A stretch of 61,063 nt of DNA from an uncultured Candidatus Saccharibacteria bacterium (GTDB lineage: Bacteria; Patescibacteriota; Minisyncoccia; Phycocordibacterales; DATDWN01): positions 1 through 61,063 of the forward strand of contig CAZRVD010000005.1 in NCBI GenBank assembly GCA_964603545.1. Direction: 5' to 3'. The position numbers and the translations under genes were made by a program. Every line of letters starts with the position of its first letter. Position 1 is the first letter of the stretch. A model generated the notes under the pieces. The model was not told the DNA's origin, searched no databases, and worked only from the letters and a program-made list of their open reading frames with translations. This document shows positions 1 to 8,390 of the stretch, piece by piece.

Positions 1-42
1 TTCAAGGCTGCAATCGGGGTTCGATTCCCCGTGAGGTCACCA
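1..42 (+). tRNA. 3' part of a tRNA gene cut by the window edge; isotype not determinable with confidence
   Basis: nt 15-31 form a canonical T-arm (CGGGG/TTCGATT/CCCCG). This is followed by acceptor strand TGAGGTC, discriminator A and an encoded CCA (40-42). If nt 1-3 (TTC) are the anticodon it would be tRNA-Glu, but the 5' half is outside the window. Confidence 0.7.
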
Positions 43-1720
43 TCAGGTTTTGATCGGGTACAAATCCCGAAGACAGTTCGAATACTAGCGACAATTTAGG
101 TGTTCCACTAACTATTTCTGGATAGGTGGGCATCTTCTCAAATACCAACCCAAACAGGTCCCGTAAAGAGCGCGGATCATCAGGGTTTAGTAACAATTCG
201 GCTGGGTGTTCCATTACGTATCTGGCATCTTTGATAAATGCCTTTATGTCATGCCTAGAGATCTGGATTTTATGCCGGACCCCCTGCGCTTCTTTGATTT
301 TTTTGTCACTCTCCTCGATTTCTCTCTCCAACTTTTCTCGAACAACAGCACTTTTAGTGGTCACAAGAACATCGAGTTTTGTGGCCTGCTCTGCTTCAAG
401 ATCTGCGATGTTTCGATGAATGTCACCCGAGGCTTTGACGATTTCCTTCTCACGCTGACGGTATTTATTCATAAACACCAGTTCAAGCGCATTGAGAACA
501 TCTGGCTGAAACTTCAGATTTGAGATGTACGCGTTTACAGCCTTTTCAAAATCCGCTTTCGGGATCCTGATTCCTTTGTGTTTGCGTGAGCAGTGATATG
601 CCGGGAACTTCTTTCCAGATTTACCTCGGGACGCACTCCCTAGAAATGGTTTTGAGCAACTAGGGCATAGAAGAAACTTGAATGGGTATAATGGGTTGTT
701 TCTTACCCTGACCTCGCCGGTTTTTGAAGATCTTTTTATCAACTCGAAACTTCCATCGGAGGCTTGTTTCAAAATCAATTTTCCGCGATTCGCTCTATTC
801 CAAAGATCAATGCTAACCAAGCCGTCATATTGCGCCTTGATAGGTTTGAAGTGTGTCCACAACTCACACATGACACCGGCATAGATTGGATTTTCTATGT
901 ATCTTTGAAATTGCTTTATGTTGAGGGGTTTGCCACCTCTTTTCGCGATAATCTCTGTATGTTCTTTGTTCCATCTGTTCCGGATCGGAGATTGGAAACC
1001 CATTGCATTTACTTGTGCGACACACTCCTCATCAGTTAGTCCACGAGCACGCAAGTCAAACATCGCTCGATAGAATTGTGCCCGATTCGGGTTTGGAACT
1101 TGAATAGTCTTTTTCTTTCCTTCCACGAATATCTTTTCGTTCTTGTATCCGTCGGAAGGTGAACGTGTACGATAACCCTGCTGCGCTAGCCGGATCTCTT
1201 GTCCTATCATGCGATGTAGAATCGTCGTCACTTCCTGTTTCGAAGTTGTTGCCAGCACATTTTCAGTGATCTCGCTCGGATAGAATCTACTCCAGTCGTA
1301 TTCGAAGCCGAGTTCTTCAAGAGTATTTATGGATGGCTGTATTACTCCGAGAGTATCGATCATCACCACACCGTATTTCAACAATTCCTTTTTCATTCGA
1401 TCATACTCACCGGTCCCTGCGCGAGTGAATCTGTCTATGGATTTGAATACATAATAGTTTACAAGTCCGGGATTTTCTTTTATGAAAGTGAGGACTTCTT
1501 CAAAGTCATCTCGATTAGTTTTTCGCCCTGAAATTGCACGGCCCCATACTTTCCCTTGCGGATACTCTTTTGTTTGTGGAACAATAGCCCACCCTCGGTC
1601 CAGTGCAAATCTGCGCAGACTCTCTTCCTGTCGCTCCAGACTTTCACCTTCACTCGACTGCTTGAGTGAACTGACACGACACTGCACTACGCATTTTTTA
1701 TTTTGTATTGATAAGTTCAT
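2..1720 (-). CDS. large serine recombinase (integrase), C-terminus runs off the window
   Basis: 572-aa ORF. N-terminal resolvase-type catalytic region (VVQCRVSSLKQ...ESLERQ), central recombinase region, Cys cluster CPSC...YHCSRKH (zinc-ribbon-like) and a coiled-coil-like C-terminal part. No stop codon before nt 2; the last codons overlap the tRNA 3' end. Confidence 0.85.
   Translation of the reverse strand: MNLSIQNKKCVVQCRVSSLKQSSEGESLERQEESLRRFALDRGWAIVPQTKEYPQGKVWGRAISGRKTNRDDFEEVLTFIKENPGLVNYYVFKSIDRFTRAGTGEYDRMKKELLKYGVVMIDTLGVIQPSINTLEELGFEYDWSRFYPSEITENVLATTSKQEVTTILHRMIGQEIRLAQQGYRTRSPSDGYKNEKIFVEGKKKTIQVPNPNRAQFYRAMFDLRARGLTDEECVAQVNAMGFQSPIRNRWNKEHTEIIAKRGGKPLNIKQFQRYIENPIYAGVMCELWTHFKPIKAQYDGLVSIDLWNRANRGKLILKQASDGSFELIKRSSKTGEVRVRNNPLYPFKFLLCPSCSKPFLGSASRGKSGKKFPAYHCSRKHKGIRIPKADFEKAVNAYISNLKFQPDVLNALELVFMNKYRQREKEIVKASGDIHRNIADLEAEQATKLDVLVTTKSAVVREKLEREIEESDKKIKEAQGVRHKIQISRHDIKAFIKDARYVMEHPAELLLNPDDPRSLRDLFGLVFEKMPTYPEIVSGTPKLSLVFELSSGFVPDQNLMVTSRGIEPRLQP
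18..40 (+). repeat. attL-like copy of tRNA T-loop/acceptor sequence GGTTCGATTCCCCGTGAGGTCAC
   Basis: Matches 7173-7194 except for one T indel and one C/T difference. Confidence 0.75.
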
Positions 1721-1916
1721 ATGCTTGATCGTCTTTTACATTATGCGCTTTACGATTTATTTTCTCCAGCCAGATATCAAAGTATTTATCTGCAATTCCA
1801 TCAAGCGCAATAAGCATCCGACGTAGTTGTTCATCGGTGTATTTGATTGCTGATGGTCCGAGGGATTTTTTGAATGCCTCGAACTCTGTGCCTGTTTGTT
1901 TCTTTTCCGGCTCCAT
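1698..1916 (-). CDS. small hypothetical protein upstream of and overlapping the recombinase start (possible directionality factor/regulator)
   Basis: ORF 1698..1937; start at Met-8 (MEPEKKQ...) assumed. Overlaps the recombinase start by 23 nt, suggesting one operon. No recognisable motif. Confidence 0.45.
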   Translation of the reverse strand: MEPEKKQTGTEFEAFKKSLGPSAIKYTDEQLRRMLIALDGIADKYFDIWLEKINRKAHNVKDDQAYELINTK

Positions 1917-2338
1917 GGTGGAGCGGATCCAGTACAACCAAAAAGGACCCGCGTACTTCCGTGTTGCATATCGGAAGTGATCGCGAGTCCTTTTATTTAT
2001 TCAAGAAGACTCTGGGGCCGGCGACTACGTTCATAACCCCATTTATTCAGTTGTACTCAAATTGTAGCAAGTTGGTAGTTTTCAGCAATGGCAATTTCCA
2101 CTATTTTTCGCTATCATTGAAAGACAACTGAATATCGGCCCCTTGAGGGCGGGATCTAACCCATCGGGAACAACCCGGTGGCATGATCTGGAAGTCGATC
2201 AAGCATAAAAAACCCGTCATGGGGTTGCTTGATCGCCGTATGGGGAAACCTGTACGAGAGGGTTCGCTCTCTACCCGTGGCGGGCTTTTTGTGTCTCGCC
2301 GTAGGTTTTATCAGGTTGATTAGCGATCAAGCCAACCT

Positions 2339-2767
2339 ATGAATAAAAGTAAAACTATCGTCGATAAAATAGTTCTCTGGTCACTTGTTGCATTTTGCGT
2401 TATGGGCGGAGGACTGATCCTTCTTGATAATTGGGTTGGAAGGGGCGACACACCCTCTTACACGGGCAATTTACCGCGACAGGAGGCAAAGGATGTGGTT
2501 ACTCCGGATCGTCAACAGGAGGCGGTGCGGGCAATGGCCGATTTTATGGTGAAAGACGACAATGTGATTGGACTCCGAATGTGGGCGCGATCACTTGGAA
2601 TATCTGCACCGGACTTTGCAAGCGCAGCGACACTTCGAGAGAACATCCGCCGCAACACGGACGACTTCTCACTTTATCGCGATAAAAAAGAACTCACACG
2701 CCTCGTAGAAACTCTTGCCAATCAAGACTCAATGCTTTTGGAAGTAGTGAACGAATCGATACGTTAG
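2339..2767 (+). CDS. hypothetical membrane-anchored protein (island cargo)
   Basis: 142-aa ORF with an N-terminal hydrophobic helix (IVLWSLVAFCVMGGGLILL). No recognised domain. Confidence 0.55.
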   Translation: MNKSKTIVDKIVLWSLVAFCVMGGGLILLDNWVGRGDTPSYTGNLPRQEAKDVVTPDRQQEAVRAMADFMVKDDNVIGLRMWARSLGISAPDFASAATLRENIRRNTDDFSLYRDKKELTRLVETLANQDSMLLEVVNESIR

Positions 2768-2794
2768 TCGGGTTGTTTGCAAATAACCAGAGAA

Positions 2795-5596
2795 CTAGTC
2801 TTTAGGGTGTTCATCCTCGTACTCTTGTCGTTCCTCCCGCATTTCTCGTTCGTGTTCCTGTTCTGATCTCGCAATATCTTTTGCGAGATTAGCAAGAACT
2901 TTTTCGCAAAACTTTATTATCTTTGGATTAGTCGATTTCGATTTTACATCCTCGATACGTGCTTGATTTTTTCGCATCTCGCGCGCAAAAATGTTTTCAC
3001 CGACAGCACCAGTTCCTCCACCAGTCTGACGCATTCTGGCGTCCACTCTAGCCAAGATCTGTCTGTCATCCGTAACAGCGACGATCTCAAGACAAAGTGA
3101 CGGATCCGCTGGATCAGAGATAGGCAGCATCTCCATAACCTTGAGGATATTTTCCTTCTTACCTGTGGCGATCAGGTCCGAGAGAGCGCCGCGCAACACG
3201 TCACCCCCTACGCGGTTGAAGAACTCGCCGAGGTGATAACCGATCATGCTGTCTTGTTCAGGATCTCGTTCTTCGAGCCAACGGCGAACGACGTCTTTTG
3301 TTCGTGGATCGTCGCGTATGAAAGCCGCTACGCCGGGCTCAATGTGATATGGGATTGCGTCATATCCACTATCGTACGAGTGCTTTATCCGACGCTCAAA
3401 AACTAACATCATCAGATTGAAGTCGACAACCCCAAGTGCGTGGAGAACTTGCAACTCGTTGTGGTCTAGGCGCTTTATGTTGACGAGCATCTCGGCAAGT
3501 GTCTCGAGATCTGTACGGTCCCACTCCTCAAGTTTGATCCATTTACAATGCAGAGCAAAACCAAGTTCGTGAGGATACATCGTGTCGAGTTCGGGGTACT
3601 CCTTTATTTTTTCAATCAGTGCTTTCCGAATGTCTTTATCTAGGGTCGACAAAAATGCGAGTGATCGGATCGAGTGATACTCGAGCGCACGGTTGATTTC
3701 GTCGCTCTTGAGAAACGCGAAACGACCTACTTTTCTTGCGATCTCAAGTGTGATCGCTATATCTTCCTTGCGGATTTTAGCCACAGAGAGTTCCGTGCCA
3801 CCTACAGAAAAATAAGACATGAGGATTCCATCGATCTGATCTGTAAGGTGATGTTTTGCGATGTAGTCGACGTACTCGTCCCACTGATCGAGTGAGCCTT
3901 TCCGAAGACCCCAGAGTATGCCGCGAAAAAAGAAGTACAGGCCAGTCTTGCTCGTGAGAGCATGCTTCGCAAATACTGCGGCTACTTTCGGTTTCTTTTC
4001 TGCGATTTGAGCGAGGAAATCCCGCAGAGTTTGGTAGAGCCAGTCCTCAACACAGTCGCGAAAGTTGGCTACCGCGTTGATACGCGCATACCACTCTTCG
4101 GCGTTTTTTTCAGTAATCGATTCAAGAACCTCCTTCAGTTCCTCCTCTTTTTGCTGCCGTCCCTCTTGCCACTCCATATCGCGTCGCAAACGCATCTCGT
4201 CTCCGGCAAGGAGGCTAAATAGCCGATAATCGCCCTTGTTTTCACGGATTTGTTGAAGCAACTCCTCAACGCCAGAGATCTTACGCTCTCTCGTGTTCAA
4301 AATTGATAGTTGTGTTTCTATCTCGTAGACTACCGGATAGTCGGCGATCATTTTACTTTTCGGGAAAAGTATTTTTTTGTACGCGGCAACAACATGTTCG
4401 GTGTCGGCTTCTACCATGTCCACAGATCTTTGAAGAAAATCAGGATCTCCGGTCGGCCAGTCAGTCTTATGCGTCGCGTAACCGATTGTATCCACCGTTT
4501 TGCTTTTCTCACGTATCGTATCTGCTATCTCGTATCGCTTCGTCAGGAGATCTATCGCATCGCGACGTAACTTTTTCAAGAACTTTGTCGCGTCGAGTGC
4601 CCCACGATGAAAAGTGAGCGTGTACATGTCCGTCTGCGACGTTCCATCGAAGTCGGGGCTAAATAGGTTGCGGAGCATCTCATGCGCGATCTCTGACGGG
4701 ACATCATGGCTTGTGATGAAGTCGAGCATGGCTCGGTATGGGCCGTAGCCGATCGCATTTAGCCAGTGGTAGTTATATTTTGTAGTGTTTTTCAACGCTT
4801 CCGCTGCTTTCTTTCGAACTTGCTCGCTCTCATCGGAGGCGAGTTTTGTGATGACCTCCAATGCTTCGGCCGTCTTGTCGTGAATGACCTGCTCGAGCAA
4901 CTCAATGTATGCGATTTTGACTAAAGCAGAGGTGCCACCGATCGTTCGCGCCATGTCGAGTACGATTTCAACTAGCGGGAACTCACCCTTGTTCGTTCGG
5001 TAATAAACGAGATCATGGAGAGTGCGGATTCGCTCGAGTAGAGTGTCCTCGTTGGCAGTTATGAGATTTTTCCTGACGCGCTTTTTGTATCGCAACGCGA
5101 GTCGATCGTTCGAAGTGTTCCGGTGATGCCCGCAAATACGTTTCCACTCTGCCACGTATGCGGCGGCGCCTTTTTTGATGGTGTGATTTTTGTTGAGACG
5201 AAAAGTGATCGTTTTCTTACCTGCAGAGACCTGTGCCTCGTACTGTGTCTTTACAGATTCCGGTGCTAAATACATCCAGTAAGCGACTTGCTCGTCCGGA
5301 TTCACGGCGATAAGAAATACAGGTATTGAAGATCCGTGCGCATGGCTCAAAAGATCGGTGCTACAAGTCGCAGAAAGAGAACCGTCTTTGTTTGTCTTGA
5401 GGGGTTTTATTTGCACCTTCAGCATGTTCCCACCAACCTCGTCTTGTTCGCCAAGTAGATGGACATACCCGTCGATTAGCGGAAAATCATCATCTCCTTT
5501 GGTGAGTTGCGTGAGCAGAGGGTGTGCATTCAGAAGAGTCTCCAGTACACCGATCTCTTGCTTTTCGGTTCTTTTGGCGCGACTGTATTTTGCCAT
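2795..5596 (-). CDS. 933-aa protein: N-terminal DUF4365/Mrr-like PD-(D/E)xK nuclease-like module fused to a long alpha-helical HEAT/ARM-like region
   Basis: Long uninterrupted ORF. The N-terminus LIDGYVHLLGEQDEVGGNMLKVQIKP resembles (from memory) the D...E/D...QxK core of DUF4365-type restriction-endonuclease-like domains. HEAT-like stretch ESEQVRKKAAEALKN. No P-loop seen. Confidence 0.6.
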   Translation of the reverse strand: MAKYSRAKRTEKQEIGVLETLLNAHPLLTQLTKGDDDFPLIDGYVHLLGEQDEVGGNMLKVQIKPLKTNKDGSLSATCSTDLLSHAHGSSIPVFLIAVNPDEQVAYWMYLAPESVKTQYEAQVSAGKKTITFRLNKNHTIKKGAAAYVAEWKRICGHHRNTSNDRLALRYKKRVRKNLITANEDTLLERIRTLHDLVYYRTNKGEFPLVEIVLDMARTIGGTSALVKIAYIELLEQVIHDKTAEALEVITKLASDESEQVRKKAAEALKNTTKYNYHWLNAIGYGPYRAMLDFITSHDVPSEIAHEMLRNLFSPDFDGTSQTDMYTLTFHRGALDATKFLKKLRRDAIDLLTKRYEIADTIREKSKTVDTIGYATHKTDWPTGDPDFLQRSVDMVEADTEHVVAAYKKILFPKSKMIADYPVVYEIETQLSILNTRERKISGVEELLQQIRENKGDYRLFSLLAGDEMRLRRDMEWQEGRQQKEEELKEVLESITEKNAEEWYARINAVANFRDCVEDWLYQTLRDFLAQIAEKKPKVAAVFAKHALTSKTGLYFFFRGILWGLRKGSLDQWDEYVDYIAKHHLTDQIDGILMSYFSVGGTELSVAKIRKEDIAITLEIARKVGRFAFLKSDEINRALEYHSIRSLAFLSTLDKDIRKALIEKIKEYPELDTMYPHELGFALHCKWIKLEEWDRTDLETLAEMLVNIKRLDHNELQVLHALGVVDFNLMMLVFERRIKHSYDSGYDAIPYHIEPGVAAFIRDDPRTKDVVRRWLEERDPEQDSMIGYHLGEFFNRVGGDVLRGALSDLIATGKKENILKVMEMLPISDPADPSLCLEIVAVTDDRQILARVDARMRQTGGGTGAVGENIFAREMRKNQARIEDVKSKSTNPKIIKFCEKVLANLAKDIARSEQEHEREMREERQEYEDEHPKD

Positions 5597-5654
5597 GAAT
5601 AAATCATACTCTTTTCATAAAAAATATGCTTATTTTCCAAGCCGCTTCACCTAT

Positions 5655-5683
5655 TTGACATAAACACTATAAGATGTTAGAAT
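5655..5683 (+). promoter_or_regulatory. sigma70-like promoter of GC-rich cassette 1
   Basis: TTGACA (5655-5660), 17-nt spacer, TAGAAT (5678-5683). About 80 nt upstream of the ATG at 5764. Confidence 0.55.
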
Positions 5684-5763
5684 AGCCATAGGAGTTTGTT
5701 TGGGGCTAACGCTAGGCGTTTCCCTTTGAAAGTAACCATCAACCGAAGAAAGAGAGGCACTGA

Positions 5764-6351
5764 ATGAACGCTCAACTCACGTGGGATGCGGTCCTTGCGA
5801 ACAAGGCCCTCATCGGCGGCGACATCGAGTCGCAGGAAGACGGCGTCGCTTACCGCGGCCCGATCGCGGAGATCAAGGTGGAAGGTGACTCCGTTCGCTT
5901 CAACTCGCCGTGGTGCGCCCGGATGAACCCGGACACCGGCGAGTGGGAGAAGTGGCACATCACCACCTCGTCCGTCAGCAAGAGCATGGTGCAACCGCAG
6001 GACATCGGCGACGGGAGGATCTTCTTCCAGATGCCGTTCCTCGGCGTCTGCACGATTTTCCCGAACGGCGGCAGCAAACTCGACACCCGCAAGGTGAAGG
6101 GCCTGCCGAAGGATTCGGAGCGCTTTCTCGCTCTGTTTCCGGATCTGCGCTTCGACCGCGCGATCGCCGAGAAAGTGCTCGTCGAGAAGTCGTTCTCACG
6201 GGCGGCTGAATCCTTCAAGGACAAGCCGGCCGACGCGACGCTGCAAGACTTGCTCGGCTGTTTCAAGCACGACAGCCAGGCCGAGGAGTTCCTCTGGCAC
6301 TACGTCGAAGCCGTCACCGGCGAGAAGGAAGTGCACCAGAAGGTGTACTGA
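5764..6351 (+). CDS. hypothetical protein, strongly GC-rich (cassette 1)
   Basis: 195-aa ORF with G/C-ending codons (GGC GAC ATC GAG TCG CAG...). Purine-rich AGAGAGG lies 6 nt upstream of the ATG. The high GC creates several shadow ORFs in other frames. No recognised domain. Confidence 0.7.
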   Translation: MNAQLTWDAVLANKALIGGDIESQEDGVAYRGPIAEIKVEGDSVRFNSPWCARMNPDTGEWEKWHITTSSVSKSMVQPQDIGDGRIFFQMPFLGVCTIFPNGGSKLDTRKVKGLPKDSERFLALFPDLRFDRAIAEKVLVEKSFSRAAESFKDKPADATLQDLLGCFKHDSQAEEFLWHYVEAVTGEKEVHQKVY

Positions 6352-6862
6352 TGTTGGTTGGAATGTCGTGTGATCTGGGGGTGCGTGTGGAGAAATCCGC
6401 ATGCACCTCTTTTGTTTTTCTTCTAGTAACGGCAATGGAGCGCTGATACAGAAGCAGTGTTTCTTTTTGCTCGATCTCAACTTTTGGAGTGGACTCCTCT
6501 GCAAAGAAAAGTGCCATATCCCATTTCAGTATTGAGTTTGCGGCTGCTATGCGATCCGCAAACGTCGGACCGGATTCTCCGTTGAGAATTGTGGCAAGTT
6601 TTTGCGTAATAAATCGATGTCGCTCTTTGAGACTTACCAACCTCTCTGTTCGACTTTGAGTAGAAAGTTCTTCGAGGTTTTCTATGCGGACCTTTTTCAG
6701 CAGTCTTGAGACATAGTGCCAGTCGAGTTCGCCTCGGAGTGATTGGTATCCTTGTCGATACAGAGAATTGCGAACTTGCGCCACCGACTTGAGAGGATAG
6801 AGTGCTACTTCATCGCGGATCGCTCGCTTGATCAGTTCTTCAATTTCTTTTGGCTTTCTCAT
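6314..6862 (-). CDS. hypothetical protein (island); 3' end probably altered or extended by cassette 1
   Basis: 182-aa ORF. The last ~35 codons run antisense through the cassette-1 terminator and CDS end and look non-native (low-complexity P/S/T/R tail). Confidence 0.5.
   Translation of the reverse strand: MRKPKEIEELIKRAIRDEVALYPLKSVAQVRNSLYRQGYQSLRGELDWHYVSRLLKKVRIENLEELSTQSRTERLVSLKERHRFITQKLATILNGESGPTFADRIAAANSILKWDMALFFAEESTPKVEIEQKETLLLYQRSIAVTRRKTKEVHADFSTRTPRSHDIPTNISTPSGALPSRR
6380..6420 (+). terminator. intrinsic terminator of cassette 1
   Basis: GGTGCGTG...CATGCACC stem (one G-U pair) followed by TCTTTTGTTTTTC. Confidence 0.6.
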
Positions 6863-7051
6863 GTTCGTGCTTATTCGTGGTTTTGCGCGCTCGCTACATA
6901 CAGTTCAATACCCCATAAGGTAAGATCTTTTCTAGTTTGTAAGTATGAAAAGTGGCTAAATAGCATGGGTTTCTGGTACCATTAGATAACTCGGATTGAG
7001 GGTCTGAAACACCGTTTTCCATTTCAATACTAGGTTTTCAATGGTGTTCCA

Positions 7052-7073
7052 TTCAAATCCCTCCGGGCTCACA
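7052..7073 (+). repeat. second tRNA-3'-end-like fragment inside the island right arm
   Basis: TTCAAAT-CCCTC-CGGGCTC-A looks like T-loop + T-stem 3' strand + acceptor strand. No intact tRNA can be folded around it. Confidence 0.4.
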
Positions 7074-7172
7074 TTTTTCATTTTGAAAAAAGTCTAAGGG
7101 GATCGAAGCCCGATTGAGATTTTTTAAGAACAAAGTGAATTAAAAATCCAATTGGGGTACTGACCGAGTAGC

Positions 7173-7194
7173 GGTCGATTCCCTGTGAGGTCAC
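7173..7194 (+). repeat. attR-like copy GGTCGATTCCCTGTGAGGTCAC
   Basis: Direct repeat of 18-40. Ends 5 nt before the tsaD ATG. Not followed by CCA. Confidence 0.75.
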
Positions 7195-7199
7195 ATTTA

Positions 7200-8390
7200 A
7201 TGAAAATCTTATCAATAGAAACCAGCTGCGATGAAACAGCAGTTAGTATTGTAGAGGCAACAGGTGGACTAGAATCCCCTACTTTTTCTGTACTTGGAAA
7301 CGCCATTTTTTCCCAAATTAAAACTCACACACAATATGGTGGAGTTTTCCCGATGATGGCAAAAAGAGAGCACGCAAAGAACCTTCCAAAACTCTTAAAA
7401 GTGGTTCTTGAACAAACTAAAGAATTCATATCATACGATATATCGTATGATATGAATAAGTGGCAAGAGATAGAAGATATTTTGAAGAGAGAAGATGGAT
7501 TATTTGAGGAACTTAAAAAAACTATTGAAAAAATAAAAAAACCGGATATTGATTTGATTGCAGTGACTTCAGGTCCAGGATTAGAACCAGCACTATGGGT
7601 AGGAATAAGTTTTGCAGTGGCCCTTGGAAAACTTTGGGACTTACCAGTAGTTCCTGCAAATCATATGGAAGGACACATTGCTTCTATCTTAATAAACGAA
7701 GATAAAACCCCTGTTGAATTTCCAGCTTTAGCTCTTCTTATTTCTGGAGGTCACACAGAAATTGTAGAAATAGAAAATTGGGGTAGTTACAAAATACTAG
7801 GTTCTACGGTGGATGACGCTGTTGGAGAAGCTTTTGATAAAGTGGCGAGACTTTTAGGACTTCCTTATCCAGGTGGTCCAGAAATTTCAAAGTTAGCAGA
7901 AAGAGCTCGATTAGAGGATGTTTCCAAAATAGCCAAATTTCCAAGGCCGATGATACATTCCAAAAACCTTAATTTCTCTTTTTCTGGGCTAAAAACAGCC
8001 GTTTTATACTATATTAGAGATAACTTTGAAGGAAAAACTGAGAATATAAGTGAGAACGAAAAAGCAGACATTGCTCGTGAGTTTGAAGACTCTGTTGTGG
8101 AAGTTCTAGTCCACAAAGTTGAAACTGTTTTAGAAAGCAATAACATTAGAACTCTTATTGTAGCTGGAGGAGTTATTGCTAACAAAAAAATTAGAGAAGC
8201 TTTTGCGGAACTTGCAAATAAATTTGAAGGACTCACTTTAAAAACCCCAACAAAAGAGTTATCCACAGACAACAGTATTATGATTGCCTGCGCCACATAC
8301 ATAAAAACCTTAGTATTTCCTGAATTAATTTCAAAAAATAATAAAATAATTGCGGAAGGAAATTTGAAATTAAAATATGAAATGTTATAA
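7200..8390 (+). CDS. tsaD: tRNA N6-adenosine threonylcarbamoyltransferase TsaD (Kae1/Gcp family)
   Basis: MKILSIETSCDETAVSIVE, HMEGH and VAGGVIANKK motifs. Start taken at ATG 7200 rather than the GTG at 7185, which lies inside the att repeat. Contains a ~50-aa insertion relative to typical TsaD. Confidence 0.9.
   Translation: MKILSIETSCDETAVSIVEATGGLESPTFSVLGNAIFSQIKTHTQYGGVFPMMAKREHAKNLPKLLKVVLEQTKEFISYDISYDMNKWQEIEDILKREDGLFEELKKTIEKIKKPDIDLIAVTSGPGLEPALWVGISFAVALGKLWDLPVVPANHMEGHIASILINEDKTPVEFPALALLISGGHTEIVEIENWGSYKILGSTVDDAVGEAFDKVARLLGLPYPGGPEISKLAERARLEDVSKIAKFPRPMIHSKNLNFSFSGLKTAVLYYIRDNFEGKTENISENEKADIAREFEDSVVEVLVHKVETVLESNNIRTLIVAGGVIANKKIREAFAELANKFEGLTLKTPTKELSTDNSIMIACATYIKTLVFPELISKNNKIIAEGNLKLKYEML

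Follow-up and report, generated by a model that had tools for sequence, protein, structure and literature searches.

A DUF4365/DREN-headed HEAT/ARM-like solenoid protein on a tRNA-integrating island as a candidate single-chain phage-defence protein

We analyzed a stretch of 61,063 nucleotides (hereafter the window; contig CAZRVD010000005.1, positions 1 to 61,063) of an uncultured Candidatus Saccharibacteria bacterium, recovered from a groundwater metagenome. Near its left end, the minus strand encodes a protein of 933 amino acids (aa), in which an N-terminal nuclease-like head is joined to a long helical solenoid. Sequence comparison, structural models and analogy with characterized systems make it reasonably probable that this protein is a single-chain sensor–effector immune protein of the abortive-infection type. 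The open reading frame (ORF) had first been picked out by a model that saw only the sequence (the sequence-only reading); we recovered it with its ATG initiation codon, on the minus strand, and with the peptides that had been quoted from it. The parts of the gene are as follows, in window positions.

2795..5596, minus strand: the whole gene (933 aa; ATG ORF and its translation), DREN-type nuclease head plus alpha-solenoid
5126..5596, minus strand: DUF4365/DREN PD-(D/E)xK nuclease domain, residues 1–157, assigned from Pfam, PADLOC, a profile search of the Protein Data Bank (PDB) and Foldseek
5405..5473, minus strand: predicted catalytic residues D42 (5471–5473), Q62 (5411–5413) and K64 (5405–5407), from alignment and conservation
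2810..5125, minus strand: HEAT/ARM-like alpha-solenoid, residues 158–929, the proposed sensor/regulatory body, with a long acidic final helix, from AlphaFold2 and Foldseek
4787..4933, minus strand: the only repeat recognizable by sequence as HEAT/ARM, residues 222–270 (Pfam HEAT_2, below cutoff)
4598..4654, minus strand: beta-hairpin within the solenoid, residues 315–333 (strands 315–323 and 326–333)

The nuclease head and the solenoid body

Sequence and model comparisons identify the head as a DUF4365/DREN-type PD-(D/E)xK domain with an intact predicted catalytic site. Pfam DUF4365 (PF14280) matched residues 37–133 with an expectation value (E) of 3.4e-9 (37.3 bits, cutoff 24.3), and the PADLOC model Aga_REase, an Argonaute-associated restriction endonuclease, matched the nuclease head only (E 3e-8; model positions 39–139 of 429). 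A profile built from 21 diverse heads of the family was searched against the PDB sequences. Three solved SPARDA DREN-APAZ sequences were matched, with E 7.5e-10 for 9qbq and 1.8e-7 for 9jsb, and in the alignments of 9jsb and 9qbq with the profile the 'iDG' and VQ[IV]K motifs coincided. In the 933-aa protein, D42 stands in IDGY and Q62-x-K64 in VQIK, both within the motif quoted in the sequence-only reading. Among DUF4365-headed family members the aspartate is conserved in 50 of 50, and the glutamine and the lysine each in 49 of 50. The three residues align with D41/Q60/K62 of NbaDREN, whose triple mutation abolished nuclease activity (bioRxiv 10.1101/2023.06.08.544223), and Q62 and K64 align with the residues of the same numbers in TmuRE, which were used as an inactivating mutant (PMC10810196). 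We predict from its sequence that the head is an active nuclease.

A head-only AlphaFold2 model showed secondary-structure elements in the order alpha-beta-beta-beta-alpha-beta. In a Foldseek search with this model, SPARDA chains occupied ranks 1–9 (best E 2.2e-4), followed by I-Ssp6803I, PrfA/RecU, Hjc and PvuII. The fold and the catalytic residues thus came out as the sequence-only reading had expected, with one correction to its wording. That reading had proposed a DUF4365/Mrr-type head; the DUF4365 part stands, with PF14280 above its cutoff, whereas the Mrr-type part does not, the DREN domain having an Hjc-like topology distinct from Mrr according to the SPARDA authors (bioRxiv 10.1101/2023.06.08.544223).

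The remainder of the protein had been described as all-helical and HEAT-like, and the models agree. The full-length AlphaFold2 model reached a predicted local distance difference test score (pLDDT) of 85.4 and a predicted template-modelling (TM) score of 0.67, with helices from 161 to 929, mostly at pLDDT >85. The sole exception to the helical body is the beta-hairpin at 315–333, which carries G318, S320 and T326, invariant across the family. Foldseek returned 182 PDB matches for the full-length model at E<=1e-3, with TM-scores of 0.13–0.35; the 50 matches listed were all HEAT/ARM solenoids, including SF3B1, PP2A-A, Kap95 and CRM1. By sequence, HEAT_2 at residues 222–270 fell just below the Pfam cutoff (E 1.7e-5; 25.5 bits against 27.7), and the family profile matched only armadillo repeats among the PDB sequences, designed armadillo repeats aligning with positions 245–275. 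Pfam, NCBIfam and PADLOC detected neither a nucleoside triphosphatase (NTPase) domain, as the sequence-only reading had said of NTPase motifs, nor a known DNA-modification reader domain in the protein. Moreover, the solenoid body is covered by no model in Pfam, NCBIfam, PADLOC 2.0 or PHROGs.

The solenoid family, its heads and its genomic neighbourhoods

An exhaustive phmmer search over 1.84 billion representatives, clustered at 50% identity, recovered a solenoid family of 468 clusters at E<=1e-3, 87 of them at E<=1e-30. Nearly all matches were confined to the body, at about residues 220–927. We took the 150 best representatives and sorted them by what precedes the body.

No head (~800 aa): 56 of 150
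RelA/SpoT head (RelA_SpoT, E 3.6e-12): 35 of 150
DUF4365 head in direct fusion, as in the 933-aa protein: 14 of 150
DUF4365 head with an extra ~100-aa segment: 18 of 150
TIR head (TIR_2, E 1e-11): 1 of 150
NB-ARC head (P0158, a distant relative, E 1.5e-9): 1 of 150
Unassigned head: 3 of 150
Fragments: 22 of 150

These comparisons characterize the solenoid, at the level of sequence, as a shared module of a large unnamed family with interchangeable heads. A headless body and a RelA-fused body were 62% identical over 786 residues; as bodies this similar carry different effectors, heads are exchanged over short evolutionary distances. The solenoid of the NB-ARC member lies C-terminally, as do the sensor repeats of STAND/NLR proteins.

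A small gene directly precedes the headless gene in both loci of this type that were checked by sequence search. The small protein in L006/L007 is 220 aa long and has an HNH-like head (PADLOC ZorE-like, E 3e-7), and that in L008 is 290 aa long with a DGGVD...QYK motif, which is Mrr-like by eye, without library confirmation. The two share a C-terminal segment of ~100 aa (E 2e-8), hereafter the adaptor, and in the long fusions with DUF4365, TIR or NB-ARC the same segment immediately follows the head. When the adaptor profile was compared by hhalign with the post-head regions of the 933-aa class and the RelA class, the probability was below 1%. Therefore, we regard the 933-aa class as a direct fusion. 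Loci L014 and L015 repeat the split layout, with a 220-aa ORF followed by an ORF of ~815 aa; the 220-aa ORF of L014 has no Pfam match.

Word-index searches yielded 13 full-length homologues of the 933-aa protein, each of ~933 aa and 50–86% identical to it, and their source labels, where named, were Moranbacteria or Moraniibacteriota. Many of the genome records recovered for the family belong to candidate-phyla-radiation bacteria (Moranbacteria and Saccharibacteria labels), and the family is also present in genomes labelled as proteobacterial and Bdellovibrionales. A profile scan of genome contigs for further family loci gave 5 loci. The neighbourhoods are summarized below by type of solenoid gene and adjoining genes, with R-M standing for restriction–modification.

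L001, L002 and L010, DUF4365-headed: serine recombinases, tRNA at the element end
L003, RelA-headed: DpnII R-M, serine recombinase
L004, RelA-headed, from a betaproteobacterium: groES/groEL
L005, TIR-headed: OLD-TOPRIM/Gabija-like ATPase, GmrSD
L006, L007 and L015, headless: Type I R-M
L009, DUF4365-headed: Shedu SduA_C, methyltransferase plus helicase, Fic
L012, RelA-headed: EcoRI methylase, GmrSD_N
L013, 1010-aa ORF, head not scanned: MmeI-like enzyme, helicase, T5orf172

Pooled scans of 85 neighbours returned mostly R-M methyltransferases, Old/GajA/AriA-like ATPases and recombinases. The neighbourhoods are variable, defence-rich and recombinase-associated, the opposite of the conserved housekeeping setting that the sequence-only reading had named as evidence against its proposal.

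Three further observations concern genes adjoining family members. A 298-aa DUF4238 protein is encoded two genes 3' of the headless solenoid in L006 (10726–11622) and in L015 (10654–11550). It has no match in PADLOC 2.0; DUF4238 is presumably a listed single-gene defence candidate (Rst_DUF4238). In L014, a 1181-aa protein with a central NUDIX domain (3654–7196) lies directly 5' of the 220-aa and ~815-aa ORF pair, which is laid out like the HNH-adaptor and headless-solenoid pair of L006; the NUDIX protein may be a third component or may belong to a neighbouring system. Genes for a CsoR-type metal repressor and a copper/heavy-metal P-type ATPase lie directly beside the nuclease-solenoid gene in L002 (9649–9924 and 7334–9643) and L010 (10953–13567), two loci that are unrelated. 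These metal genes may travel with it as cargo of the same elements, or may reflect a shared insertion neighbourhood.

Proposed function and alternative explanations

A defence function is what we infer for the 933-aa protein. The DREN (DUF4365) domain would be the effector, a metal-dependent PD-(D/E)xK nuclease acting through D42/Q62/K64, and the HEAT/ARM-like solenoid of ~770 residues would be a sensor/regulatory body that keeps the head inactive until an infection cue arrives. The cue would most likely be a phage protein bound on the repeat surface. Its binding would change the assembly state of the protein, so that heads come together and become active; the switched-on head would degrade DNA, and possibly RNA, indiscriminately, which would end the infection and sacrifice the cell.

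The effector role is assigned to the head because it is homologous to a characterized collateral nuclease, the DREN of SPARDA being indiscriminate in its cleavage (bioRxiv 10.1101/2023.06.08.544223). The body is taken as the sensor because it stays the same under heads of unrelated chemistry, because it occupies the sensor-repeat position in the NB-ARC member, and because DSR2 offers a precedent, in which the HEAT-repeat region and a C-terminal cavity bind a phage tail tube protein and thereby activate Sir2 (PMC11263360). Activation by clustering of the heads is suggested by two facts. One is that TIR heads ride on the same kind of body. TIR heads are generally held to act as oligomers. The other is that the DREN of SPARDA, monomeric at first, becomes active on tetramerization (PMC12205087).

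We put forward more tentatively, as a possibility short of probable, the wider proposal that the solenoid is the NTPase-independent recognition module of a large unnamed family of immune receptors, into which DREN, RelA/SpoT, TIR, STAND and separate HNH- or Mrr-like heads are plugged.

Several observations weigh against a defence sensor of this kind. The neighbourhood sample is small, comprising 12 non-redundant loci without a formal background, and one of the loci, L004, adjoins groES/groEL and shows no defence or mobility genes. The head-only model is modest (pLDDT 66), with TM-scores of 0.38–0.48 to DREN. A sensor surface engaged in an arms race might show a hypervariable patch; no such patch was found among the 13 close homologues, and divergence was even along the solenoid (identity 0.61–0.88 in every 30-residue window). 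Furthermore, the solenoid carries polar residues that are invariant across the family (R344, E427, R609, R736 and an IPYH motif), which might reflect a conserved ligand or interface and not varied phage proteins. Even divergence and invariant polar residues would fit a conserved interface and a guarded host ligand equally well.

The last of these points leads to a guard-type sensor, whose solenoid would bind a conserved host factor or small molecule and which would fire when a phage removes or alters that partner. The invariant polar residues, the conserved beta-hairpin and the even divergence of close homologues without a hypervariable surface agree with such a guard. However, no conserved partner gene lies beside members of the 933-aa class, and no ligand-binding domain was detected in the protein with Pfam or NCBIfam, and we consider a guard highly improbable. 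Equally improbable, in our judgment, is a DNA-directed enzyme of the type IV/Mrr kind, in which the solenoid would bind foreign or modified DNA and position the head for direct attack on the invader. Such an enzyme would fit the PD-(D/E)xK head, a type typical of restriction enzymes, and the frequent position of the gene beside R-M systems and GmrSD; nucleic acids are, moreover, bound by some HEAT-like repeat proteins. Nevertheless, a DNA-positioning role for the solenoid is unlikely, since RelA/SpoT and TIR heads, whose targets are not DNA, are found on closely related solenoids. The solenoid is also acidic, with a net charge of about -10 and a pI of 6.0, and the DREN of SPARDA is a collateral nuclease without such direction (bioRxiv 10.1101/2023.06.08.544223).

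Rather unlikely, too, is a role in stabilizing the island or as a weapon between mobile elements, with the protein acting as a fused toxin and regulator that kills cells which lose or disturb the element. The gene is repeatedly found on serine-recombinase elements and moves between unrelated backbones, an 86%-identical copy in L002 lying beside an unrelated recombinase. Fused toxin–antitoxin proteins such as CapRel share the layout of head plus regulator (PMC9712102). In contrast, the frequent R-M, GmrSD, Shedu and OLD-like neighbours are typical defence cargo, and at least one homologue (L004) is chromosomal with no element in view. Moreover, known fused toxin–antitoxins of this layout act in phage defence, so that addiction and the preferred reading, a defence protein that senses infection, overlap.

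Comparison with known systems places the candidate among them without assigning it to any. The SPARDA DREN-APAZ protein (PDB 9jsb, 9qbq and 9qcc) has a homologous N-terminal domain with the same D/QxK catalytic residues, and its DREN is regulated by assembly state (PMC12205087); the same control is probable in the 933-aa protein. SPARDA has APAZ and an Argonaute partner, which the 933-aa protein lacks, and no PIWI or APAZ match was found in it or its neighbours with Pfam, PADLOC, NCBIfam and PHROGs. SPARDA senses by guide RNA and target DNA, whereas the 933-aa protein would sense by a protein solenoid. DSR2, likewise a single chain of ~1000 aa, has a killing enzyme at its N-terminus and, behind it, a long helical region with HEAT repeats, but its head is Sir2 instead of a nuclease; neither Pfam nor PADLOC matched a SIR2 domain in the 933-aa protein. 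Homology of the solenoid to DSR2 was considered and rejected, as there was no PADLOC Dsr match at E<=1 and no DSR2 in the profile search of the PDB; none of the 50 Foldseek matches listed for the full-length model was a DSR2 chain.

Avs and other bacterial NLR-like STAND proteins share the order of effector then repeat sensor and have swappable N-terminal effectors, including nuclease and TIR, and one family member has NB-ARC ahead of the same solenoid. They carry a central NTPase (NB-ARC or NACHT), however, which the 933-aa protein and most of its family do not. CapRel and other fused toxSAS proteins combine an autoinhibited effector and a sensor in a single chain (PMC9712102), the logic proposed here; a RelA/SpoT head is carried by 35 of the 150 best representatives, and this type of head matches the PADLOC candidate PDC-S33. 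Their head is RelA/SpoT and not a nuclease, and their regulatory part is a small C-terminal domain, whereas that of the family is a solenoid of ~750 aa. PANGU, which couples a NAP sensor to a toxSAS, proved unrelated (bioRxiv 10.64898/2026.04.06.716658). The sequence-only reading had not recognized the combination as a named system, and this still holds: there is no library model for the body, PADLOC recognizes only the head, and the literature, with incomplete coverage of subscription journals, gave no named system that joins a HEAT solenoid with DREN, toxSAS or TIR heads. The 933-aa protein would therefore be a credible, unnamed candidate member of a defence family, with a logic like that of DSR2, CapRel and Avs and without the defining features of each.

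If the protein acts in defence, it adds a sensor family of hundreds of sequence clusters that lies outside Pfam, NCBIfam, PADLOC 2.0 and PHROGs, and it provides a second, Argonaute-independent context for the regulation of DREN nucleases. Near-identical bodies occur, fused or split, with nuclease, alarmone-synthetase-like, TIR and STAND heads, a ready-made experiment that could reveal how a single sensor governs effectors of unrelated chemistry. Should the wider family prove to consist of immune receptors, some with separate heads docked through an adaptor of ~100 aa, it would form a new pattern-recognition receptor class, of a scope similar to that of Avs or DSR and following a new rule of sensor–effector coupling.

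The island and its flanking genes

A serine-recombinase island of 7.2 kb, inserted in a tRNA gene just upstream of tsaD, carries the 933-aa gene as cargo. Its recombinase and border repeats are as follows.

2..1720, minus strand: large serine recombinase of the island, separate from the candidate defence gene (Pfam Resolvase and Recombinase; phrog_95 integrase, E 1e-38)
21..40, plus strand: left island repeat, in the 3' portion of a tRNA gene truncated at the contig edge, overlapping the recombinase 3' end
7175..7194, plus strand: right island repeat, 19/20 identical to the left copy, immediately 5' of tsaD

The guanine-plus-cytosine (G+C) content is 44–57% across positions 1–7000, against 31–40% in the adjoining 8 kb. 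The 20-bp direct repeat TCGATTCCCYGTGAGGTCAC occurs at 21–40 and 7175–7194, with a chance expectation of 0 matches, and its left copy corresponds to the T-arm and acceptor 3' end of the tRNA gene. The contig begins inside this gene, whose 3' end, GGTTCGATTCCCCGTGAGGTCACCA (window 1–43), overlaps the final codons of the recombinase and so accounts for the odd C-terminus of that protein, '...GIEPRLQP'. A tRNA overlaps the recombinase 3' end also in L001, L002, L009 and L010. The G+C block, the recombinase, the repeats and the tRNA overlap together led us to assign the gene to a tRNA-integrating island, as in the earlier proposal of a single cargo gene, encoding a nuclease head joined to a large repeat scaffold, on a small integrative element.

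In a contig of the source run, the cut tRNA continues into a D-arm-like sequence that tentatively resembles tRNA-Glu. Excision of the island was also sought in the reads and was not accepted: the contig joint 36->7196 has flanks of 25 nt and a five-fold higher depth, and probably represents the tRNA of another organism. On the right side, the tsaD ORF runs from 7185 to 8390. Because its called GTG start at 7185 falls within the right repeat, the real start is probably an ATG a few codons downstream.

The sequence-only reading had suggested the flanking genes for a 142-aa membrane protein (2339–2767) and a 182-aa protein (6314–6862) as possible partners. The 182-aa and 142-aa proteins, a 79-aa protein and the recombinase all recur in L009, in conserved order and at 55–85% identity. 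None of the four adjoins the 86%-identical orthologue in L002, and only the recombinase and the 79-aa protein recur beside the 73%-identical orthologue in L001. As the 142-aa and 182-aa genes are missing beside these two orthologues and are kept only in L009, which shares the island backbone, they are part of that backbone and not components of the nuclease-solenoid system; we therefore dropped them as partners.

A full-length Rfam LOOT RNA (RF03000) was found inside the island at window 2153–2272 on the plus strand (72 bits; gathering score 46.4), immediately 5' of the ORF of the 142-aa membrane protein and on the same strand. LOOT RNAs also occur in L001 (12955–13075, plus strand) and L009 (13310–13431, minus strand), whose islands have a related recombinase, and in both cases a small or membrane-like ORF adjoining the nuclease-solenoid gene lies just 3' of the RNA. 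The RNA seems to belong to the backbone of these tRNA-integrating serine-recombinase islands. Compared with the syntenic island in L009, the window also carries an insertion of ~765 bp (about 5635–6400; G+C 52–57%) that separates the 182-aa gene from the nuclease-solenoid gene. A 195-aa ORF within the insertion (5764–6351, plus strand) has no family match in Pfam, NCBIfam, PADLOC or PHROGs. Since the insertion replaces the last ~25 codons of the homologue of the 182-aa gene, the 182-aa ORF probably ends in ~40 non-native residues.

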